Source: a virus (Duplodnaviria > Heunggongvirae > Uroviricota > Caudoviricetes). Taken from it: a stretch of 13,048 bases of DNA. This document shows, piece by piece, positions 3,542 to 13,048 of the stretch. The DNA lies in the IMG/VR virus record IMGVR_UViG_2675903352_000012; one strand, written 5' to 3'. The translations under genes and the position numbers were made by a program. Position 1 is the stretch's first letter, and every line of letters begins with the position of its first letter. The notes under the pieces were generated by a model. The model had not been told where the DNA came from. It worked only from the letters and a program-made list of their open reading frames with translations, and searched no databases.

Positions 3542-3793
3542 TTGCCCGCACCTCATAAAGCGGGTGCCGGGTTTGACAGCCTGATTGTTAGAGCGGGTAG
3601 CCGCTATATTTCCGTAATGCGGTTTTTTTGTGCCCGTAATTCCACCCCACCCCGTATTATGGCGGGGCGTAATGGGGGAGCCTTTGCGCTCGCTGGTTTC
3701 TCTAACGCCAGTCTGTCAACCCTGTTACGTCCCGCCACCATGTTTGACAGCGTGCTGGCGAGACTCCGTAAATCAGTTAGAGGAGCCGCCAAA

Positions 3794-4615: not shown

Positions 4616-4915
4616 ATGTCTGAAAATCAGAATATCCGCAATATATACAAAAAAGAATACGCTGGTTTTTTCACGGAAGATTCCATTGAGAATCTTGAAG
4701 ATGTAATAAATGTTATTGCGCTCCTTTCAGCATTGACAGGTGAAATTAATACCAGTGAGAGAATGCCAGTGCAAATTAATGAAATGGAATCATTAACTAA
4801 CATTCTTTATCGGGAATTACGAGCGATTAAGTCAGGAATGCATACTTCTGGCGGAATTTTTTCATGGCATAGTGCCGAAACCGCCGGGATTGCCAAAGCA
4901 ATAAGTAACGAGTAA
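4616..4915 (+). CDS. Hypothetical protein (99 aa), low GC, directly upstream of the primase gene
   Basis: GGGGAG lies upstream of ATG 4616. By position it could be an epsilon-like or accessory factor of P4-type left operons, but I recognise no sequence similarity. Confidence 0.5.
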   Translation: MSENQNIRNIYKKEYAGFFTEDSIENLEDVINVIALLSALTGEINTSERMPVQINEMESLTNILYRELRAIKSGMHTSGGIFSWHSAETAGIAKAISNE

Positions 4916-4925
4916 TTAATAAAAA

Positions 4926-4950
4926 CCCCACTGCAAAAGGTGCAGTGGGG
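4926..4950 (+). terminator. Perfect 10-bp stem-loop (possible intrinsic terminator or attenuator) abutting the primase RBS
   Basis: CCCCACTGCA (4926-4935), loop AAAGG, TGCAGTGGGG (4941-4950), followed by TGGAGTTTTATATATG containing the GGAG RBS and ATG 4964. Confidence 0.45.
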
Positions 4951-4963
4951 TGGAGTTTTATAT

Positions 4964-7633
4964 ATGAAATCTGACATCAGAAAAGAGATTATTAACCGTC
5001 TTATCCGTGATTACAACTTCAAAGAAGAAAATAACTACCTCCGGTATGGTGTTTGTCCGCAATGTGGAAAGAAAGAGTTGTTTACCAGCCTTGAAAGGCC
5101 GTACATCGTACACTGTGGGCGCGAAAATAAATGCGGTACAGACCTGCTGACCAAAGAACTTTACCCGGATGTGTTTTCATCATGGTCAGATCGTTATATC
5201 AGCACGAAAGATGAGCCATATGCAGCGGCGGCAGCTTATCTTCAGGAAGCGCGCAATATTGCTGTGGGGCCACTGAAGGGCGCATTTACTCAGGAGCGAT
5301 ACCAGGACAAGGAAAACGGCGAACAGGCCGCTACTGTGCGTTTTACGCTGGCTGACGGCGTGTGGTGGGAGCGCATCATAGACCGACCGGGACGCTTCGC
5401 GCGCAAGGCGAATTTTTCCGGCAGCTACAAGGGGTTGTGGTGGGCTTATCCGGGAGCAGATTTAAGCAAGGCCAAAGAAATCTGGATTTGTGAGGGCATC
5501 TTTGATGCCATCAGCCTTAACCAGAATGGCATTGCGGCCATTTCTGTCATGTCTGCCGTGAACTACCCTGATAAGGCGCTGGAAGAGCTGGCGAAGCTGT
5601 GCGGGGATAATCCCCGTCCGGTTATTGTGTGGGCCCTGGATAACGGGCGTGCGGGTGAACGTTACGCGAAAAAACATGCAGAACGCAGCGCCGAAGACGG
5701 CTGGAGAACGGCAGCGGCGTTGCCAGGTAAAAACAACAATAAACGCGACTGGAATGATTTACACATCGCAGGAAAGCTGCGTGGCCATGATGTGAAAAGA
5801 TACCGTTATTACGGTGATTTATTGCTGGCGAAATCTCCAAGAGATAAGGCACTAATAATGTTTTCCTTTCGTGAGCGGAAGGAATTTCATTTTACTTTTG
5901 ATAACCGTGTTTTCTGGTTCAAGCTGGACATTGAGCGCCATATGAAGGCTGTTGAGCGTGTCATTAATGAGCGAAATGTTGACGAAGACGAAGCGCGCAA
6001 AATTGCACTTAAGGAATCCGGCGCTGTAAAAGAAATCGCAAACTGTAACCCAGTGCCGCTTTATTACATTCGAAACAATGACACGGATGAAGCATGGTAT
6101 TACTTCCGCGTTACATTCCCGGATGGTGCTACGGTGAAAAACACCTTTACATCAGGACAATTAACATCCTCATCTGAATTTAAAAAACGCCTGCTGCACG
6201 TGGCAAAAGGCGGTATTTATACCGGAACGACTACGCAGCTTGACGCATTAATAAAAAATGACCTTCCCGCAATAAAAGAGGTTATTGGTCAGGATTTTAT
6301 CGGATACAACAAGGGAATTGGGGCATGGCTGTTTAATGATATTGCCGTTTACAAGGGTAAAACTTATGAAATCAATGATGAGGATTATTTTGAAATTGAT
6401 GGCATAAACGCAAAACCATTAAGCGAAAAACCCACATTACAGATTAACTACAAAAAACCGGATGAATTTACAGCGTCCTGGGTGGAAGATCTCTGGCTGG
6501 CTTTTGGTGAAAAGGGAATTATTACCCTGGCTTTCTGGTTGGGCTCCCTGTTCAGCGAACAAATCCGGGATAAAGAAGAATCCTTCCCCTTCCTTGAAGT
6601 CACCGGGGAGCCCGGAACGGGTAAATCAACACTGATTGATTTTTGCTGGCGGCTGTGCGGTCGTGACAACTATGAAGGCGTTGATCCAACCAAAGGATCA
6701 GAGGCGGGCTGGAAGCGCACCTTTGGACAGGTCGCCGGATTACCTGTTGTTCTGATTGAAGCGGACCGGGGAGACAATGCGCAAAAAAGAGGTGCGTTTG
6801 ACTTCGATAACCTGAAAAGTCTCTATAACGGCGGCGGTATCGGCGTTCGTGGTGTTAAGGCCAACAATAACAACACCTATGATCCGGATTTTAAGGGCGC
6901 TATCGTGATTGCGCAGAATGCGCGGGTAAACGCCTCTCCGGCAATTATTGAGCGTCTGATACGCATATACACCGATAAAAAACGCCATTCACCTGATACC
7001 CGCCTGGCGGCGAGACGGCTGGAACTTTACCCCGTCGAGAAGGTATCTGGGTTTATTCACCGGGCGGTAAGTCAGGAACGGGCGATTATGCAAACGTTCC
7101 TGGAAGTATCTCCAGTTGAAACGGAGCGCCTTTGCGGATGCGAAAATATTCGCCATCCCCGCATCGCCAAAAATCACGCACAACTTATCGCGCTGGTCAG
7201 GGCGCTGAAATGCGTTATTGATATCCCGGATGAATGGCTTGATGCCACATGTCTGGAACTGGAACAAATGGCAACAGCGCAGGTTAAAGCGGCGGCGGCT
7301 GATTTACCGGAAGTGATGGAGTTCTGGGAGGCGTTCGACTTCCTGGACGGCATAACAAAATACGGTGTAAACCACTACGGCAAGGGATGCCGCGAGGGGA
7401 TTGCTATCAGTATTCCGCAACTGGCACAGGCTGCCGCTATTCACCGCGTGGAGATCCGAACTGACCGCGAAATGATTGAGTTGCTCGGAGCCGGACGTTC
7501 CCGACCTTTGACAGGCCGCAAAACCATTCGTAGTGAGGTCTCCAGACAGGCAAACGCCGGAAGAGGGGTCGCCGAGGCCAGAGAGCCGGAAGTACTGAAA
7601 TGCCGGATATTCAGTTACAAGGAGGGGCGTTAA
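4964..7633 (+). CDS. Bifunctional replication protein: zinc-finger/TOPRIM primase fused to a P-loop helicase (P4 alpha-like)
   Basis: About 889 aa. N-terminal CPQCGKKE...HCGRENKCG zinc-binding motif; TOPRIM-like IWICEGIFDAISL and ALDNGRAGER; Walker A GEPGTGKST and Walker B-like VVLIEAD in the C-terminal half. Start taken at ATG 4964 (GGAG RBS) rather than the track's 4940. Confidence 0.85.
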   Translation: MKSDIRKEIINRLIRDYNFKEENNYLRYGVCPQCGKKELFTSLERPYIVHCGRENKCGTDLLTKELYPDVFSSWSDRYISTKDEPYAAAAAYLQEARNIAVGPLKGAFTQERYQDKENGEQAATVRFTLADGVWWERIIDRPGRFARKANFSGSYKGLWWAYPGADLSKAKEIWICEGIFDAISLNQNGIAAISVMSAVNYPDKALEELAKLCGDNPRPVIVWALDNGRAGERYAKKHAERSAEDGWRTAAALPGKNNNKRDWNDLHIAGKLRGHDVKRYRYYGDLLLAKSPRDKALIMFSFRERKEFHFTFDNRVFWFKLDIERHMKAVERVINERNVDEDEARKIALKESGAVKEIANCNPVPLYYIRNNDTDEAWYYFRVTFPDGATVKNTFTSGQLTSSSEFKKRLLHVAKGGIYTGTTTQLDALIKNDLPAIKEVIGQDFIGYNKGIGAWLFNDIAVYKGKTYEINDEDYFEIDGINAKPLSEKPTLQINYKKPDEFTASWVEDLWLAFGEKGIITLAFWLGSLFSEQIRDKEESFPFLEVTGEPGTGKSTLIDFCWRLCGRDNYEGVDPTKGSEAGWKRTFGQVAGLPVVLIEADRGDNAQKRGAFDFDNLKSLYNGGGIGVRGVKANNNNTYDPDFKGAIVIAQNARVNASPAIIERLIRIYTDKKRHSPDTRLAARRLELYPVEKVSGFIHRAVSQERAIMQTFLEVSPVETERLCGCENIRHPRIAKNHAQLIALVRALKCVIDIPDEWLDATCLELEQMATAQVKAAAADLPEVMEFWEAFDFLDGITKYGVNHYGKGCREGIAISIPQLAQAAAIHRVEIRTDREMIELLGAGRSRPLTGRKTIRSEVSRQANAGRGVAEAREPEVLKCRIFSYKEGR

Positions 7634-7635
7634 AC

Positions 7636-8640
7636 ATGCCGATCAGAAAGATGCATGATGGGCGGTGGCTGCTCGATATCAGGCCATGCGGACGTAAAGG
7701 GAAGCGCATCAGAAGAATATTTGACAAAAAATCGATAGCTACAGCAACTGAACGGTACATCATAGCGAACGCCGAAAAGCGCGAGTTTATACAGGGCTAT
7801 CGCGACCGGAGAACGCTTAGCGATTTACTGGAATTGTGGTGGGTTTATCACGGTCAGCACAGGCGAAAGGCAAACACGGATAAACAGCAGCTTGGCAAAA
7901 TTATTAATGAGCTTGGAGCTGGCATGTTTGCGGTAGAACTCGACAAATTAAAAATCATTGCATGGCGATCGCAGAAAATTGCGGAAGGATTAAAGCCGTC
8001 CTCAGCAAACAGATACATGAACAGATTATCGGGGATGTTTACAGCCCTGAAAAAGATCGGTTTGTGGGATGCAGAGCATCCGGTTCGTGGTATTCCTGTT
8101 CTTTATGTAAAGCAGCAGGAAATGGCCTTTTTATCAAAAAACGAGGTCACATTGTTGCTTGACGGGCTGAATGGAGATCAACGAAGGGTTGCGCTCTTGT
8201 GTCTTTGTACCGGAGCCCGCTGGAGTGAGGCCAGCAGATTGCATGGAGAGCAAATAGTTCATCACAGAATAACGTTTCTGGAAACCAAAAACGGTAGAAA
8301 AAGAACGGTGCCTGTGTCGCAGGAAATATGCGATGCCGTAAAAACAAAAGAAACCGGGCGACTGTTTGATGTGAAGTACAGAGAGTTTTGCCGGGCATTA
8401 AAAAAAATAAAACCCGATTTACCGAGGGGGCAGGCTGCGCATGTATTGCGGCATACATTCGCCAGTCACTTTGTGATGAACGGTGGCAACATTCTTGCGC
8501 TACAAAAAATCCTTGGGCATGCGACAATTCAGCAGACTATGGCATACGCACATTTTGCACCGGATTATCTGGCAGATGCCATGAGATTTAACCCGGTAGC
8601 CAACATAGTGATCACCGAAGAAAAAGACCCAGTAGAGTAA
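7636..8640 (+). CDS. int: Tyrosine site-specific integrase, P2-type (second recombinase)
   Basis: About 334 aa. N-terminus MPIRKMHDGRWLLDIRPCGRKGKRIRRIFDKK resembles the P2 Int arm-binding N-terminus as I recall it. Catalytic motifs TGARWSEA, HVLRHTF, LGHATIQQTMAYAH. GGAGGGG RBS (7621-7627) lies inside the primase 3' end; ATG 7636 is 2 nt after the primase stop. Confidence 0.85.
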   Translation: MPIRKMHDGRWLLDIRPCGRKGKRIRRIFDKKSIATATERYIIANAEKREFIQGYRDRRTLSDLLELWWVYHGQHRRKANTDKQQLGKIINELGAGMFAVELDKLKIIAWRSQKIAEGLKPSSANRYMNRLSGMFTALKKIGLWDAEHPVRGIPVLYVKQQEMAFLSKNEVTLLLDGLNGDQRRVALLCLCTGARWSEASRLHGEQIVHHRITFLETKNGRKRTVPVSQEICDAVKTKETGRLFDVKYREFCRALKKIKPDLPRGQAAHVLRHTFASHFVMNGGNILALQKILGHATIQQTMAYAHFAPDYLADAMRFNPVANIVITEEKDPVE

Positions 8641-8876: not shown

Positions 8877-9186
8877 GGGGGGGGATGCGCAAAGCGGTTA
8901 CAACGGTTACAAATTTAGAATTACTTATTTTTGTATTATATATCAATATATTATAACTGGTCGGATGAGTTACAAAAGCGGTTACAACGCGGTTACATGT
9001 AACCGTTTTGTTAGGTTACAGGCGGTTACAGGTTAAGTTTTTAATTGATTGATAATAAAGTGCTTTTTGAAACCTGTAACCGTTGTAACCGCAAAGCGGT
9101 TACAAATAATATCCATTAAAATCATGTTGTTAAGTGGTGTTTTTGACTGTTGTAACCGTTGTAACCGCTTTGCGCACCCCCCACCG
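8877..9186. repeat. Iteron array bounded by ~35-bp imperfect inverted repeats (candidate replication origin/crr or recombinase arm-site region)
   Basis: Twelve perfect GGTTACA/TGTAACC copies, starting at 8896, 8905, 8980, 8991, 8999, 9014, 9024, 9075, 9084, 9098, 9151 and 9160, with 9-11 bp spacing in both orientations. The left arm (8877-8912, G8 + ATGCGCAAAGCGGTTACAACGGTTACA) is the near-exact inverse of the right arm (9151-9186). The interior is AT-rich. Confidence 0.7.
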
Positions 9187-9409
9187 GATTATGAGGCAGA
9201 GCCCCAAAACAACTGGCCTGACCTCCAACAAAAATGCAACATCAATCATTGATTTTTTGGGGGCTGTCAGTCACGGGGAGTTGCCCTGTTGTTTGGCAGA
9301 AAAATGAAGTATGTACATGCGCGGCGGGGATGGTAAAAAACGTAATACACGCGGCGCAGTTGCCATAAAAAATCTCTCAAAAGCACTCTTTTTGACGCTA
9401 TTGTTCATC

Positions 9410-9436
9410 TGCACAAAAGTGCACAAATTTGCACAA
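9410..9436. repeat. Three tandem 10-bp repeats of TGCACAA
   Basis: TGCACAA at 9410, 9420 and 9430, with a fourth copy at 9502. Non-coding region upstream of the ogr-like gene. Confidence 0.4.
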
Positions 9437-9798
9437 TTTTTTAGAGTAACTTTTTGCCCATCCGGCCCAGTACTGGCGCGCCCGGAGGGCGATTTCGTGC
9501 GTGCACAAAAAACGGTGAGTTTTTCGCGCGCAGGTGACGGGGGAACAGCACGCGTTTCAGGGGGTAAATTACATTTTCGCTAAAGGCTGCGGGAATGCCC
9601 CGACCGGGTTAGTTTTATCGCCAGCCAGAGCCGTTCTTACGGCAAGAGAGAACTGATACGGGGAATGTGACGAGTGAGCATGGGAACGGCGCGCCCGTGC
9701 GTAATACGCGGCGACTGCTGCGGGTTTATTTGATACAGCCAGAGGGGGCGGCAGAAGATATAATAGGTTAAATTTCACACCAGTAAGAGGAGCGTGAT

Positions 9799-9981
9799 AT
9801 GTCTTTCCCTTGCCCGGCCTGTGGCGCTTCAGCCCGCACCCGTGGTCGTTCGTTGGAAGAACACGAACAAAACATCCACAGAACGTATTACCAGTGCAAT
9901 AATATTGAGTGTGGGGCTTGTTTTTGTACGCTTGAGTCGTTTGTACGCATTACTAAGCGCAGGAAGTCGAAAACTTCATAG
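9799..9981 (+). CDS. ogr: Ogr/Delta-family zinc-finger late-gene transcriptional activator
   Basis: 60 aa, MSFPCPACGASARTRGRSLEEHEQNIHRTYYQCNNIECGACFCTLESFVRI. The C-x2-C-x22-C-x4-C spacing and the CP.C..A.ART.R...Y.QC.N..C...F...ES pattern match P2 Ogr / P4 Delta as I recall them. AGGAG RBS 9788-9792; TATAAT at 9759-9764. Confidence 0.75.
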   Translation: MSFPCPACGASARTRGRSLEEHEQNIHRTYYQCNNIECGACFCTLESFVRITKRRKSKTS

Positions 9982-10031
9982 TGATTTGTATAACACAGCC
10001 AGCGAGTGTGACCGGCTGCGTTATTTCTGTA

Positions 10032-10265
10032 TTACGTCGTGTGGTTCTGGTCATTTGCCCAGGCCCACACATCCCCCGCTACATTGCGCCCGTTGCAGTC
10101 TTCTTCCTGCGTTTTCCCGGCCTTAATTCCCTGACTGATAAACATTCTGACGCACTGGGAGTAGTTCATCTCTCTGTCCTGACATATCTGATTTATTTTA
10201 TGGTCGATTTCGTGCGGGATACGAATACAGCGTAATACGCATCGCATTTTCTTTTGTTTTTTCAT
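10032..10265 (-). CDS. Small DNA-binding regulator, probably ribbon-helix-helix (CopG/Arc/MetJ-like)
   Basis: 77 aa from the internal ATG at 10263-10265, with GGGAGG 7 nt upstream on the minus strand. MKKQKKMRCVLRCIRIPHEIDHKINQICQDREMNYSQCVRMFISQGI fits a beta-strand/helix/helix pattern. Divergent from the 10431 operon across a repeat-rich intergenic region. Confidence 0.45.
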   Translation of the reverse strand: MKKQKKMRCVLRCIRIPHEIDHKINQICQDREMNYSQCVRMFISQGIKAGKTQEEDCNGRNVAGDVWAWANDQNHTT

Positions 10266-10430
10266 CGTGTTGCCTCCCTGATTGTTTATGCCGGGATTTA
10301 ACACCCGCGATATAAGAAAGCGTAATACAACAGTATTGTGAGCGTATTACGAGAACAAAATCGGCTGGAATGTATTACGCAATATGGAAAAAATCGGCGT
10401 AAGTAAAAAAATGTATTACAGGAGCAAATA
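10229..10430. promoter_or_regulatory. Divergent promoter/operator region with repeated CGTAATAC / GTATTACG motifs
   Basis: Perfect 8-mers at 10231, 10321, 10344 (complement) and 10372 (complement), plus a partial copy at 10413; further copies at 9341 and 9700. Lies between the RHH-like gene and the 10431 operon. Chance expectation for one 8-mer in about 1.1 kb is far below one. Confidence 0.45.
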
Positions 10431-11141
10431 ATGGATATAACTCAGGCAAGCGCCGAACATCAGGTATGTAAAGCACAGTTTGATACAGCCATGGCAAAAC
10501 TCAGTGAACAGGAATCATTAATCACCAATCTGGAAGCAACTATCGAACAGACGAAAGGGGAGCTGGAATCTCTCGATCGTGACTGGCAGAACTCAATCCT
10601 GTCTGCGCTGGGCGTAAAAACGGAAGCCTCCGCGAAATTATCCATTCAGGCGGGTGTGGCGCGAGAAAATCTTGAGCGTCTGCGGGTGCTGCATGATGAG
10701 GCGCGCATCAGGCTACTGGAGTGTCGTTATAACGCGGCAGAGGCTGGTTGTGCTTACGAAAGCATTGATAATAAGTTACGGGCAGAGATATTTGCAAAAG
10801 CACTTCCCGAACTGATTAACGAGCTGACCCCTGCTCTGTTATTGATTCGTGGTTTATGTGAGCTGCTTGGCCAGCCGCTGTATAACGCAGAAAAGAAAAT
10901 ATGCGAAACACTGAAAGCGACAGATACTGCTGAAAGTGTCGGGATGATTCGCGGCCGGATTAACGATACCGAAAGCGACACCTCCAGCCCGCTGCGTTAT
11001 TGCCCGGAGAAACTCCCGGATTCGGTAAGCCGCGCAATCAGGAACGCCCCTTCACCTGTACAATGGAGCGCAGCGCGACAGAATCCAGAAAAAATGCGCG
11101 ACCTTGCGGAGGGCAGAGAACTCTGCCGGGGGTGGCAGTAA
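10431..11141 (+). CDS. Hypothetical coiled-coil-rich protein (236 aa); possibly Psu/Sid-like or scaffold-like
   Basis: AGGAG RBS 10420-10424. The stop overlaps the downstream start (TAATG at 11139-11143). The N-terminal half has heptad-like, helix-rich composition. Any similarity to P4 Psu is a weak recollection only. Confidence 0.6.
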   Translation: MDITQASAEHQVCKAQFDTAMAKLSEQESLITNLEATIEQTKGELESLDRDWQNSILSALGVKTEASAKLSIQAGVARENLERLRVLHDEARIRLLECRYNAAEAGCAYESIDNKLRAEIFAKALPELINELTPALLLIRGLCELLGQPLYNAEKKICETLKATDTAESVGMIRGRINDTESDTSSPLRYCPEKLPDSVSRAIRNAPSPVQWSAARQNPEKMRDLAEGRELCRGWQ

Positions 11142-12412
11142 TGGGCGGTCTGAATACTCCACATTTGCACGGCGCTGATATAGTGAGCCGACTCAGGGGA
11201 TTAATGTCCCGGAATCGCCTGAAAGCAAACACAGCAAGCATAAGCGATGAGACGCGTCGCGCGCTGGACAATGAATATCAAAAACTGGAGCGTGAGCTTG
11301 AGCTTCACACCCTGCATACTGCAAGCGGTGGGGGTAATAACGACGGCATTGAGCGTTATAATTGCACTGCTGATTCTGTTGTATCACAACGAAATCAACA
11401 GGCTCAGATGGTTTTCAATTGCGCTATCGAGTCGATAACCGGAAAACATCCGAAGGATTTGCACTTTTCCGGTGACACTGCGCGCTATTCGTCAGAAGTT
11501 GAACCCGTTCCTCGCCAGAGTGCAACGCTTGCCAGTGGATGGCAGGCAAATTTCCTTGCTGAAATAACTCCCGTGCCTGTTACGGATATATCAGGTCGGG
11601 TTGTGCTGGTAGACGCTTCGGGGCCGTTGGCACGTACATCGCCACCTCACGAGCGCCGTTCGCCACTACAGGCGCATTCACTGGTTTCAAGGGGCTACCG
11701 CTGCGAGCAGGTTAATTTTGATTTTGCGCTGAACTACGACAATGTTGATGCTCACGCATCCGCAAACGGTCTTGAAGGAAGCGCACGGGCTGCTTTTGAA
11801 CGCCGGAAATGGCTGGATTTGATTCAGATTGGTTTTAACGGTACGCACTATGCCGATACATCAGATCCCGGAACATATCCGGGGCGTGATGATTGCGGCG
11901 TGGGCTGGTTGCAGAAGTTTCGAAATGAAGCGGCGGGAAGGGTTATCAGCGGCCTTTCTGTTTCATCACCGAAAAGTAATACACGCGGTACACACCATAC
12001 GATAGATGCGCTCGTTCTGGATGCCTGGCAATCCATGATTGATGAACAGTGGCAGGAAGGCATTGTGGCCGTATGCAGTCACAATACGCTGGTCCGTAAG
12101 CAATGGCCTTTGATAAACCGTCTTGATCCATCGCAGATGAATCAGGAAATTTTGCTTAACGAGGAAATCATTAAAAATCCTGTTCTGGGGAATCTCCCGG
12201 CTGTGACCGTTCCATTTTTCCCGGACAATGCTGTATTGATCACACCTCTTGCCAATCTGTGTCTGTACTGGCAGCGTGGTTCCGTTCGTGGCCTGGTAAA
12301 AAACGAGCCTCAGTATAATCGTCTCGCGTTCTATGAGTCCTGTAACCTTGACTGGGTGGTGGGGCAATATGAAGCAGGGTGCTTACTGGATGGGATTGAC
12401 TGGAAAGAATAG
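11141..12412 (+). CDS. P2 gpN-like major capsid protein homolog with an N-terminal extension of about 90 aa
   Basis: 423 aa from ATG 11141. The C-terminal 270 aa carry motifs I associate with the P2-family capsid protein: CEQVNFDF, IGFNG, GVGWLQKFRNEAAGRV, IDALVLDA, GNLPAVTVPFFPDNAVLIT, YESCNLDWVVGQYEAGCL. The N-terminal part contains a coiled-coil-like stretch (RRALDNEYQKLERELEL). Based on memory; needs a homology search. Confidence 0.55.
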   Translation: MGGLNTPHLHGADIVSRLRGLMSRNRLKANTASISDETRRALDNEYQKLERELELHTLHTASGGGNNDGIERYNCTADSVVSQRNQQAQMVFNCAIESITGKHPKDLHFSGDTARYSSEVEPVPRQSATLASGWQANFLAEITPVPVTDISGRVVLVDASGPLARTSPPHERRSPLQAHSLVSRGYRCEQVNFDFALNYDNVDAHASANGLEGSARAAFERRKWLDLIQIGFNGTHYADTSDPGTYPGRDDCGVGWLQKFRNEAAGRVISGLSVSSPKSNTRGTHHTIDALVLDAWQSMIDEQWQEGIVAVCSHNTLVRKQWPLINRLDPSQMNQEILLNEEIIKNPVLGNLPAVTVPFFPDNAVLITPLANLCLYWQRGSVRGLVKNEPQYNRLAFYESCNLDWVVGQYEAGCLLDGIDWKE

Positions 12413-12434: not shown

Positions 12435-12457
12435 GAGGGCTTCTCAGCCCTCCTTTT
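12435..12457 (+). terminator. Hairpin plus T-tract between the convergent capsid-like and toxin genes
   Basis: GAGGGCT (12435-12441), loop TCTC, AGCCCTC (12446-12452), then CTTTT. It overlaps the toxin stop codon. Confidence 0.45.
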
Positions 12458-12800
12458 ACTTAAGCAGATGCTCTCCGCCAATCAGGGTAATGACTCTTTC
12501 AAGCACATCATTAAATACCCCATCTTCTGCCTCTGTGATTAAGCGCGCTTTCCGCTGACGCCAGTCAAGGGTTTGAATGAGTGTGGTTGCTACAACGCTG
12601 GGGGCGTCCAGATTTGTTACCGGAACTTCTGTGGGAGCATTTCGTATGCTCGTACTTATGGGGCAGCATATGACAAGCCCGGTGAGTCGGTTATATTGCT
12701 CATGGGACAGTATGAGTGCCGGGCGATACTTTCCGATCTCTTTTCCTTTCTGCGGCTCAAAATCCAGCCAGCAAATATCACCACGCTTAGGTACAAACAT
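12456..12800 (-). CDS. MazF/PemK-family endoribonuclease toxin (type II TA)
   Basis: 114 aa. RGDICWLDFEPQKGKEIGKYRPALILS...TGLVICCPISTS matches the PemK/MazF N-terminal pattern (RGD.v..dF.P..G.E....RPa.vlS). GAGGAGG RBS lies inside the antitoxin 3' end; the start overlaps the antitoxin stop. Confidence 0.85.
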   Translation of the reverse strand: MFVPKRGDICWLDFEPQKGKEIGKYRPALILSHEQYNRLTGLVICCPISTSIRNAPTEVPVTNLDAPSVVATTLIQTLDWRQRKARLITEAEDGVFNDVLERVITLIGGEHLLK

Positions 12801-13048
12801 CAGTAATCAACCTCCTCATTGAATGGGGTGGCAATTTCGTCCGCGTGCGCTGTAACTGGCGTTATCCCGGCGAGTAATTCGGCTTCACTCAGGCGACGGC
12901 GTGCAGGCTTTTCTACAAAAAGCCCCTTTTCACTAATTTCAACGTTGACGATATCACCCACTGAAAAACCCGGAACGGTTTTAAGGTTTCCCGTTAGTCG
13001 AAGGGCAATGCTATTACCCCATTTTTGCAATACAACCTGTGTGCGCAT
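12800..13048 (-). CDS. MazE/AbrB-fold antitoxin (SpoVT/AbrB family)
   Basis: 82 aa. LQKWGNSIALRLTGNLKTVPGFSVGDIVNVEI matches the MazE/ChpS pattern (KRWGNS.AVRIP). The start codon is the last three bases of the window, so the promoter lies outside it. Confidence 0.8.
   Translation of the reverse strand: MRTQVVLQKWGNSIALRLTGNLKTVPGFSVGDIVNVEISEKGLFVEKPARRRLSEAELLAGITPVTAHADEIATPFNEEVDY

Follow-up and report, generated by a model that had tools for sequence, protein, structure and literature searches.

What controls the capsid operon of a phage satellite that carries a capsid gene of its own? The question is raised by the 13,048-nucleotide (nt) DNA of the IMG/VR virus record IMGVR_UViG_2675903352_000012 (the window, by which we mean this whole stretch), which by its gene content is a P4-like satellite of Escherichia coli carrying a P2-family capsid homolog. 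A short palindrome recurs around the genes leading into its capsid operon, and an earlier note on this DNA had taken these copies as the sign of a dedicated, possibly autoregulated circuit for that operon. Our analysis supports this proposal: the motif is real and non-random, its array is conserved in position in diverged relatives, and its sequence changes together with the predicted recognition strand of a regulator encoded next to it. The reading that we favor, at a probability of roughly 60%, is that the palindromes (YGTAWTACR) are operators of an autoregulated repressor of the ribbon–helix–helix (RHH) kind, set over an Ogr-type late promoter that would drive the satellite capsid operon.

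A palindrome clustered around the control region

The exact octamer CGTAATAC occurs seven times in the window (9341+, 9700+, 10029−, 10231+, 10321+, 10344−, and 10372−), and all of these copies lie within 1.04 kb (9341–10379), in agreement with the at least six perfect copies in about 1.1 kb reported before. Dinucleotide shuffling yielded a mean of 0.23 copies, and none of 200 shuffles reached seven. When both strands are read, the unit is the 9-bp palindrome YGTAWTACR with the 7-bp core GTAWTAC, and three copies (9700, 10231, and 10344) present it as the full palindrome CGTAWTACG. A search allowing one mismatch added two sites, TGTATTACA at 10412–10420 and CGTATTACC at 9884–9892 (+); the latter, located within ogr, is a doubtful site for which no equivalent was seen in relatives. 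Four copies fall in the 165-nt divergent intergenic region, including the inverted pair at 10321 and 10344 that had been pointed out previously. Relative to the ATG at 10431, the exact copies in this region lie 110, 87, and 59 nt upstream, within the 40–110 bp originally claimed for them, and the variant TGTATTACA stands at 18 nt. An Rfam scan gave no match in 9200–10430.

Of 5426 complete E. coli genomes, 57 contain the control region, in each case collinear and with an identity of at least 96.8%. Within-species conservation was assessed on an alignment of 14 E. coli variants covering 1261 positions, of which 231 are variable; among the 72 motif positions a single one varies, against about 13 expected. 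The depletion persisted in a conservative subset without a recombinant block (P = 0.012) and points to purifying selection on the motif positions within E. coli. The one variable position, C10035T, changes in 4 of the 14 variants and belongs to the copy at 10029–10036 (−), which overlaps the stop codon of the small divergent gene and is the least conserved of all. The copy at 9700 is invariant in the 14 variants although 9690–9699 and 9710 vary around it, and the copy at 10343–10351 (site A′ below) is likewise invariant.

These results bear directly on the simplest alternative, namely that the copies form a functionless cluster produced by chance or composition, or consist of duplication remnants. 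Short 8-mers can indeed cluster by chance, and two of the copies lie in coding sequence under codon constraint. The shuffling result stands against this explanation, as do the unrelated sequences flanking the individual copies, the absence of polymorphism at nearly all motif positions, and the retention of these positions in relatives whose regulators are 28–38% identical to the window protein (alignment A2). We consider such an origin extremely improbable.

Another repeat of the region, the exact 13-nt direct repeat TTTGATACAGCCA (9729–9741, upstream of ogr, and 10479–10491, within the gene for a 236-aa protein, with a variant at 9985–10002), was considered as a second operator and rejected. 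It is not consistently kept among close variants and is probably not functional, because these often retain only one of its two copies.

A small regulator and its family

Our candidate for the protein that reads the palindromes is the product of the small divergent gene (10265–10035, −), a protein of 77 aa with the predicted strand R8-C-V-L-R-C-I-R-I-P17, which defines a new RHH-like family. The first search with this small protein retrieved only close relatives together with L002, a noisy assembly, and it was an exhaustive HMMER search followed by a profile search that reached the distant members. These come from Salmonella (L069/L070 and L074/L075), from E. coli (L072/L073), and from run or metagenome assemblies (L071, L076, L077/L078, L079, L080/L081, located beside hpt, and L092/L093). 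Scanning with the profile of alignment A2 added nothing new from IMG/VR and one lineage, L092/L093, from metagenomes. In 10 of the 10 lineages with readable context the synteny is the same, with primase, int2 where present, cos, ogr, and the RHH-like gene, opposed in orientation to the genes for a protein of ~240 aa and for the P2-family capsid. Members were seen in this synteny only, in E. coli, Salmonella, and metagenomes, and 965 blocks of the sequence collection, on contigs from Salmonella, contain one variant of the regulator.

Fold prediction and fold searches are consistent with an RHH protein, an assignment that is weak. Among curated families, the Pfam matches to CopG_antitoxin (E = 0.04) and RHH_9 (E = 0.15) both stay below the cut-off, and a PDB profile search with the regulator gave no RHH match; one source labels a family member "Arc family DNA-binding protein". 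Alignment with Arc by hhalign was non-significant (probability 0.4%), and the sole segment that it paired, IRIPHEIDHKIN with LRWPREVLDLVR, places L11 at Gln9, C13 at Asn11, R15 at Arg13, and P17 at Pro15. Gln9, Asn11, and Arg13 are the DNA-contacting positions of Arc. A palindrome of 7–9 bp also corresponds to the length that a single RHH dimer recognizes, as in the heptads of the omega repressor and the MetJ boxes.

Organization of the divergent promoter region

The order of elements was obtained from an alignment of the divergent intergenic regions and reads regulator −10 (GATAAT), site A, dyad, site B, an AAAnAT block, and site C followed by the Shine–Dalgarno sequence. On the regulator side, the predicted −10 of the window, TTAAAT (10296–10301, −), aligns with the conserved GATAAT and suggests a start near 10289 (−), and site A, CGTAATACA (10321–10329, +), is predicted to lie over the regulator −35 region. 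Its counterparts are TGTAATACA or CGTAATACA in L069, L074, L079, and L077 and TGTTATACA in L071, and the site is also present in L092. A further copy lies inside the regulator gene (10231–10239, +), as had been noticed earlier, and falls on the Val-Leu-Arg codons of the stretch Cys-Val-Leu-Arg. The codons GTA TTA CGN are kept in five of six lineages with V-L-R, amid synonymous differences in the neighboring codons, which indicates selection on the DNA itself.

Toward the operon, no sigma-70 consensus promoter was found upstream of 10431, and an Ogr_Delta-domain gene lies 450 nt upstream of the operon. The consensus of the P2 late promoters is TGT-N12-ACA (PMC3931495), of which the window has no perfect instance in 9200–10430. 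A dyad with one mismatch, TGT-N12-AGA (10337–10354, +; TGT-N15-ACA is also readable here), was revealed by the relatives only, five of which (L069, L071, L074, L077, and L092) hold a perfect TGT-N12-ACA in the same columns. Downstream of it, the AAAnAT columns are conserved and suggest AAAAAT (10389–10394, +) as the −10 of the late promoter, with a start near 10401. On this assignment the center of the dyad falls at −55.5, close to the value in the P2 promoter PO, whose activator site is centered 55 nt before the start and whose −10 is GAAACT according to the P2 GenBank annotation.

The same predicted start places site A at −76, A′ at −54, B at −26, and C at +16. Site B, TGTATTACG (10371–10379, −), is located between the dyad and the −10; its counterparts are TGTATTACA in L069, L074, and L079, TGTCTTACA in L077, and TGTCWGACA in L072 and L076, and the distance between the centers of A and B is 49–50 bp in the window, L069, and L074. 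Site C, TGTATTACA (10412–10420, −), directly precedes the Shine–Dalgarno sequence and is represented in relatives by a degenerate TGTnWTACA. Site A′, CGTATTACG (10343–10351, −), is an extra copy peculiar to the window lineage and occupies the spacer of the dyad, so that two features set the window apart from its relatives, the mismatch of the dyad and this additional operator candidate within it.

Another possibility is that the palindromes are themselves compact activator sites of the satellite's Ogr/delta-like zinc-finger protein. In most lineages their outer triplets are TGT and ACA (TGT-N3-ACA), which equal the half-sites of the P2 TGT-N12-ACA, and both ogr and the capsid operon have copies upstream. 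Against this, a separate canonical dyad occupies the very position expected for an Ogr-type activator, the copies at −26, at +16, and within the RHH-like gene have positions typical of a repressor rather than of an activator, and a half-site spacing of 6 bp would presumably need a dimer geometry other than that suited to the 15 bp of P2. Most likely, to judge from this arrangement, the Ogr-like protein uses the separate TGT-N12-ACA-type dyad between the motif copies.

The motif switches with the predicted recognition strand

Absence of the motif from related elements would have spoken against a dedicated circuit; instead, diverged relatives have the array at corresponding positions, where it flanks the dyad, covers the predicted regulator −35 region, falls on the V-L-R codons, and stands beside cos. 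Near the end of the regulator gene the picture is less uniform, with one copy in L069 and none in L074. To compare lineages, GTAWTAC and GTCNGAC were counted per control region, a stretch that starts ~130 nt left of cos and ends at the ATG. Lineages whose regulator has the predicted strand V-L-R gave GTAWTAC/GTCNGAC counts of 9/0 (window), 7/0 (L069), 6/0 (L074), 5/0 (L077), and 5/0 (L079), and those with I-R-R gave 0/3 (L072), 1/3 (L076), and 0/5 (L080). This pairing of strand and motif was predicted after L072 and then held in L076, L077, L079, and L080. The strand I-L-R is found in L092, which has TGTAATACA at site A, of the GTAWTAC type; it is accordingly the change from Leu to Arg that accompanies the replacement of A:T by C:G at the third position of the core. 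L071 (V-L-R-A) has TGTTATACA three times among its intergenic sites.

The number of copies differs between lineages, and in L076 and L080 tandem repeats of ~125 bp (2–3 units) lie between cos and ogr, each unit carrying GGTGTCTGACAGTA; operator number can thus change by repeat expansion.

The ogr genes follow another pattern. Each of the eight fully analyzed relatives has a detectable ogr-like reading frame, and the I-R-R clade has clade-specific Ogr residues, both of which could be expected if Ogr bound the palindromes. Zinc-finger similarity, however, does not track the motif class, since the window finger is 58% identical to that of the I-R-R class and 42% identical to that of L077. Moreover, in the two independent Salmonella assemblies L069/L070, an in-frame stop interrupts ogr within the first CxxC (VFPCP*CGSS...), no gene is called, and seven motif copies persist; the interrupted frame lies ~610–625 nt upstream of the start of the 240-aa gene. 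Taken with the promoter geometry, these observations make the palindromes unlikely as Ogr sites.

The second tyrosine recombinase of the element, int2 (Int_N and Phage_integrase domains; 7636–8640, +), directly follows the primase and is present in most relatives. It is absent from L071 and L077, both of which retain the motif, and this counts for the RHH-like protein rather than int2 as the reader. An invertible switch composed of int2 and the inverted copies was also considered and was rejected on the same two lineages and because the 57 E. coli copies are without exception collinear.

Copies beside cos and upstream of ogr

Two copies lie outside the divergent region and on either side of a cos-like segment. 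This segment of 167 nt (9409–9575, no strand assigned), which contains GGTGACGGGGGAACAGCAC, is the sole part of 9180–9990 common to more than 1100 E. coli genomes, at ~80% identity, and we take it to be cos for its likeness to the P2/P4 cohesive end. By blastn it was recovered in seven of eight relatives scanned, with no match in L077. RefSeq annotates a 90-aa hypothetical coding sequence, WP_000281924.1, over the site (9311–9583, +), which is probably spurious because 9409–9575 is unannotated in the more than 1100 other genomes.

The left copy, CGTAATAC (9341–9348, +), stands ~67 nt from cos, and a lineage-type palindrome is similarly spaced in relatives (~65–67 nt in the window, L074, L079, L080, with GTCCGAC, and L072, with the hybrid GTCATAC). 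The right copy, CGTAATACG (9700–9708, +), is a full 9-bp palindrome 99 nt upstream of the ogr start, and in relatives the interval from cos to ogr contains one to three lineage-type copies, whose distance from the ogr −10 varies. In the window and in the seven relatives with a located cos, lineage-type copies accompany it on one or both sides. The segment left of cos recombines between lineages: L012/L065 carry an unrelated block at the equivalent of 9200–9408, and in L076, whose regulator is of the I-R-R class, the left-of-cos block is nearly identical to that of the window, CGTAATAC included. Within the foreign block of L012/L065, which is 32% identical to the window over 9277–9408, AAAAACGTAATAC is nonetheless exact and forms a 13-nt island.

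The same island settles the status of the GCGGCG that the earlier note had described within 2 nt of the copies at 9341 and 9700. The adjacency is correct (a 2-nt gap at 9341 and none at 9700), and its conservation failed, as GCGGCG is not kept next to AAAAACGTAATAC in L012/L065; we therefore rejected it as part of the motif. After the 9700 copy it forms the 5′ arm of a terminator-like hairpin followed by a T-run (9707–9722, +), in which, by inspection, variants alter 9710, 9716, and 9718 with pairing kept. Further downstream, a TATAAT is visible by inspection at 9759–9764, ahead of the ogr/delta-like zinc-finger gene itself (60 aa; 9799–9981, +; Pfam Ogr_Delta E = 2e-11; also annotated by RefSeq). 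The earlier note had placed the motif around both the ogr-like and the capsid-operon control regions; the two upstream copies flank cos and are no evident ogr operator.

The cos-flanking copies may be sites for repression of ogr, or of transcription across cos, or may instead function in packaging. They are also an argument for a reader encoded elsewhere, such as a Cox/Apl-like or terminase-associated protein of the helper, another satellite protein, or a host regulator, which would serve mainly in packaging or protection of cos and for which the promoter copies would be secondary. The constant company of cos, often at ~65–67 nt to its left, fits such a role, a promoter model has no need of these copies, and short GT-N-AC palindromes recall the operators of some host regulators. 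Several results run counter to it. The window and L072/L080 occupy the same E. coli site beside hpt and carry two motif classes, which a single host factor cannot explain. The P2-like phage loci around the capsid genes hold 0–1 copies, and in the 11.6 kb of P4 GTAWTAC occurs once (0.73 expected). Copies are densest and best aligned in the divergent promoter region rather than at cos, and the motif class follows the strand of the adjacent regulator. We judge an external reader improbable.

A model for control of the capsid operon

Under the operator model that we prefer, one RHH dimer would bind each YGTAWTACR palindrome, and the operon from 10431 onward would be transcribed from a late promoter of the P2/P4 type, one that lacks a −35 and has a weak −10 and an Ogr/delta dyad centered near −55. 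Operators would stand on either side of the dyad and, in the window lineage only, also within it, with site C after the predicted start. This placement around the dyad implies that a bound repressor would deny access to the activator, to RNA polymerase, or to both, and the capsid operon would be kept silent in the lysogen. With A′ in the spacer of the dyad, repressor and activator would compete directly. Site A over the regulator −35 region, together with the copy on the V-L-R codons, suggests negative autoregulation, and the copies beside cos and upstream of ogr may extend the same control to those places.

Several points weigh against this model. L071 has GTATTAC on its V-L-R codons, yet its intergenic sites read TGTTATACA, and L076 carries the window-type CGTAATAC left of cos despite its I-R-R regulator, in a locus that is mosaic. 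The three I-R-R loci form one clade, so that the covariation essentially amounts to one evolutionary event, and that clade also has Ogr residues of its own. Site C is degenerate in most lineages, and its status as an operator is uncertain, given that an exact lineage match occurs only in the window and L071. The transcription starts are predictions from conserved blocks, the fold assignment of the regulator is weak, and simple promoter repression leaves the copies flanking cos unexplained.

The last point admits a bolder extension, in which the regulator might bridge or coat cos and thereby couple the release of the capsid operon to the availability of cohesive ends for the helper terminase. 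We regard this coupling as speculative and rather unlikely. If true, the cos-bridging regulator would act as a packaging gate or specificity factor encoded by the satellite itself, within a P4-like subfamily whose heads are made of its own capsid protein and not by means of Sid/Psu.

Gene content of the satellite

The element is inserted in E. coli with gcd on one side and hpt on the other, and its P4-like character is given by an integrase, an alpha-type Toprim primase, a C4/CI RNA, the cos-like segment, the Ogr_Delta gene, and an Icd-like gene. The C4 antisense RNA of Rfam, the CI-type immunity RNA of P4, is matched at 3655–3742 (+) with a score of 72.8 bits (gathering score, 45), and it falls inside an open reading frame (ORF) annotated by RefSeq as an Icd-like protein region. 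Prophage immunity of the window is apparently conferred by this P4-type C4/CI RNA.

The place of sid and psu is taken by the 236-aa gene and the P2-family capsid homolog, and no window ORF matched the Psu or Sid families. The first gene of the operon (10431–11141, +; 236 aa) has no family match and aligns weakly but collinearly with P4 Sid (26% over 151 aa, E = 0.51). Its homologs all come from E. coli or from metagenome/run assemblies with at least 89% identity, which makes them useless for footprinting. The major capsid homolog (11141–12412, +; 423 aa) matches Pfam Phage_cap_P2 (E = 2e-72) and PHROG 70, is 34–38% identical to the capsids of P2-like phages, and appears to have an N-terminal extension of ~120 aa, since the P2-family match begins only at about residue 120. 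A search of GTDB genomes and IMG/VR with the capsid protein yielded only near-identical satellites and the true P2-like phages (34–38%), which lack the motif.

Other parts of the element vary between lineages. Between int2/primase and cos, a dense array of GGTTACA iterons (8877–9185, no strand given) is found in the window, with GGTGATACAGG in its place in Salmonella (L069 9842–10042, L074 9281–9481) and GGTGTAACAGG in L072 (8559–8749); presumably, the primase recognizes these arrays as the origin of replication. Between the capsid gene and the right end, each lineage has another toxin–antitoxin pair, mazEF in the window (12456–13048, −), relB/parE in Salmonella (L069 4179–4734), and hicAB in L077 (434–1026), and L069 has an additional mazEF between the regulator and int2. 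After the integrase, a 192-aa ORF (1778–2356, +) has no family match; its counterpart in L001 is a hypothetical protein of 350 aa (4768–5820), of which the window ORF would therefore be a shorter or disrupted version.

Significance and comparison with known systems

P4 is the textbook phage satellite, with late genes that present descriptions place under Ogr/delta activation and immunity exerted by an RNA. The subfamily to which the window belongs, for which, as for its regulator, we found no description in the searchable literature, exchanges sid/psu for its own P2-family capsid gene and is predicted to add a layer of protein repression over the late promoter. The paired change of Leu to Arg and of A:T to C:G offers a directly testable specificity code and two candidate repressor/operator pairs that would be naturally orthogonal, and the copies adjacent to cos raise a possible link between gene expression and packaging.

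The predicted late promoter resembles PO of P2 and Psid of P4, which have TGT-N12-ACA ~55 nt before the start and 80–95 nt before the first ATG, a weak −10, no −35, and head-morphogenesis genes downstream. It differs in the single mismatch of the window dyad (TGT-N12-AGA), in the palindrome within the spacer, and in the repressor-type palindromes on its flanks, an array that P4, with its one GTAWTAC, does not have.

For the putative repressor, a close parallel is the immI region of phage P22, where Arc and Mnt act at Pant/Pmnt. As predicted here, a small phage-borne RHH repressor operates there next to divergent promoters, on operators that cover core promoter elements, and with autoregulation, and Arc likewise reads DNA through an N-terminal β-strand with the R-x-P signature. 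In contrast, Arc has no significant sequence similarity to the window regulator and binds one 21-bp site as a tetramer, whereas the satellite has 9-bp palindromes in 5–9 copies over ~1.1 kb that includes cos and the regulator gene, and the promoter under its predicted control would depend on an Ogr-type activator. The omega repressor of the inc18 plasmid pSM19035 is an RHH protein that binds 7-bp heptads; its heptads are contiguous, whereas the satellite units are 22–50 bp or further apart, and they serve plasmid copy number and partition rather than late genes.

Among satellites, Stl of the SaPIs and the repressors of other PICIs (phage-inducible chromosomal islands) are satellite-encoded and divergent from the operon that they silence, and relief by helper activity is presumed there as it is here; we know of no antirepressor for the satellite RHH protein. 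Those repressors are larger helix–turn–helix proteins that control excision and replication, whereas the RHH-like protein of the window sits at a morphogenetic operon.

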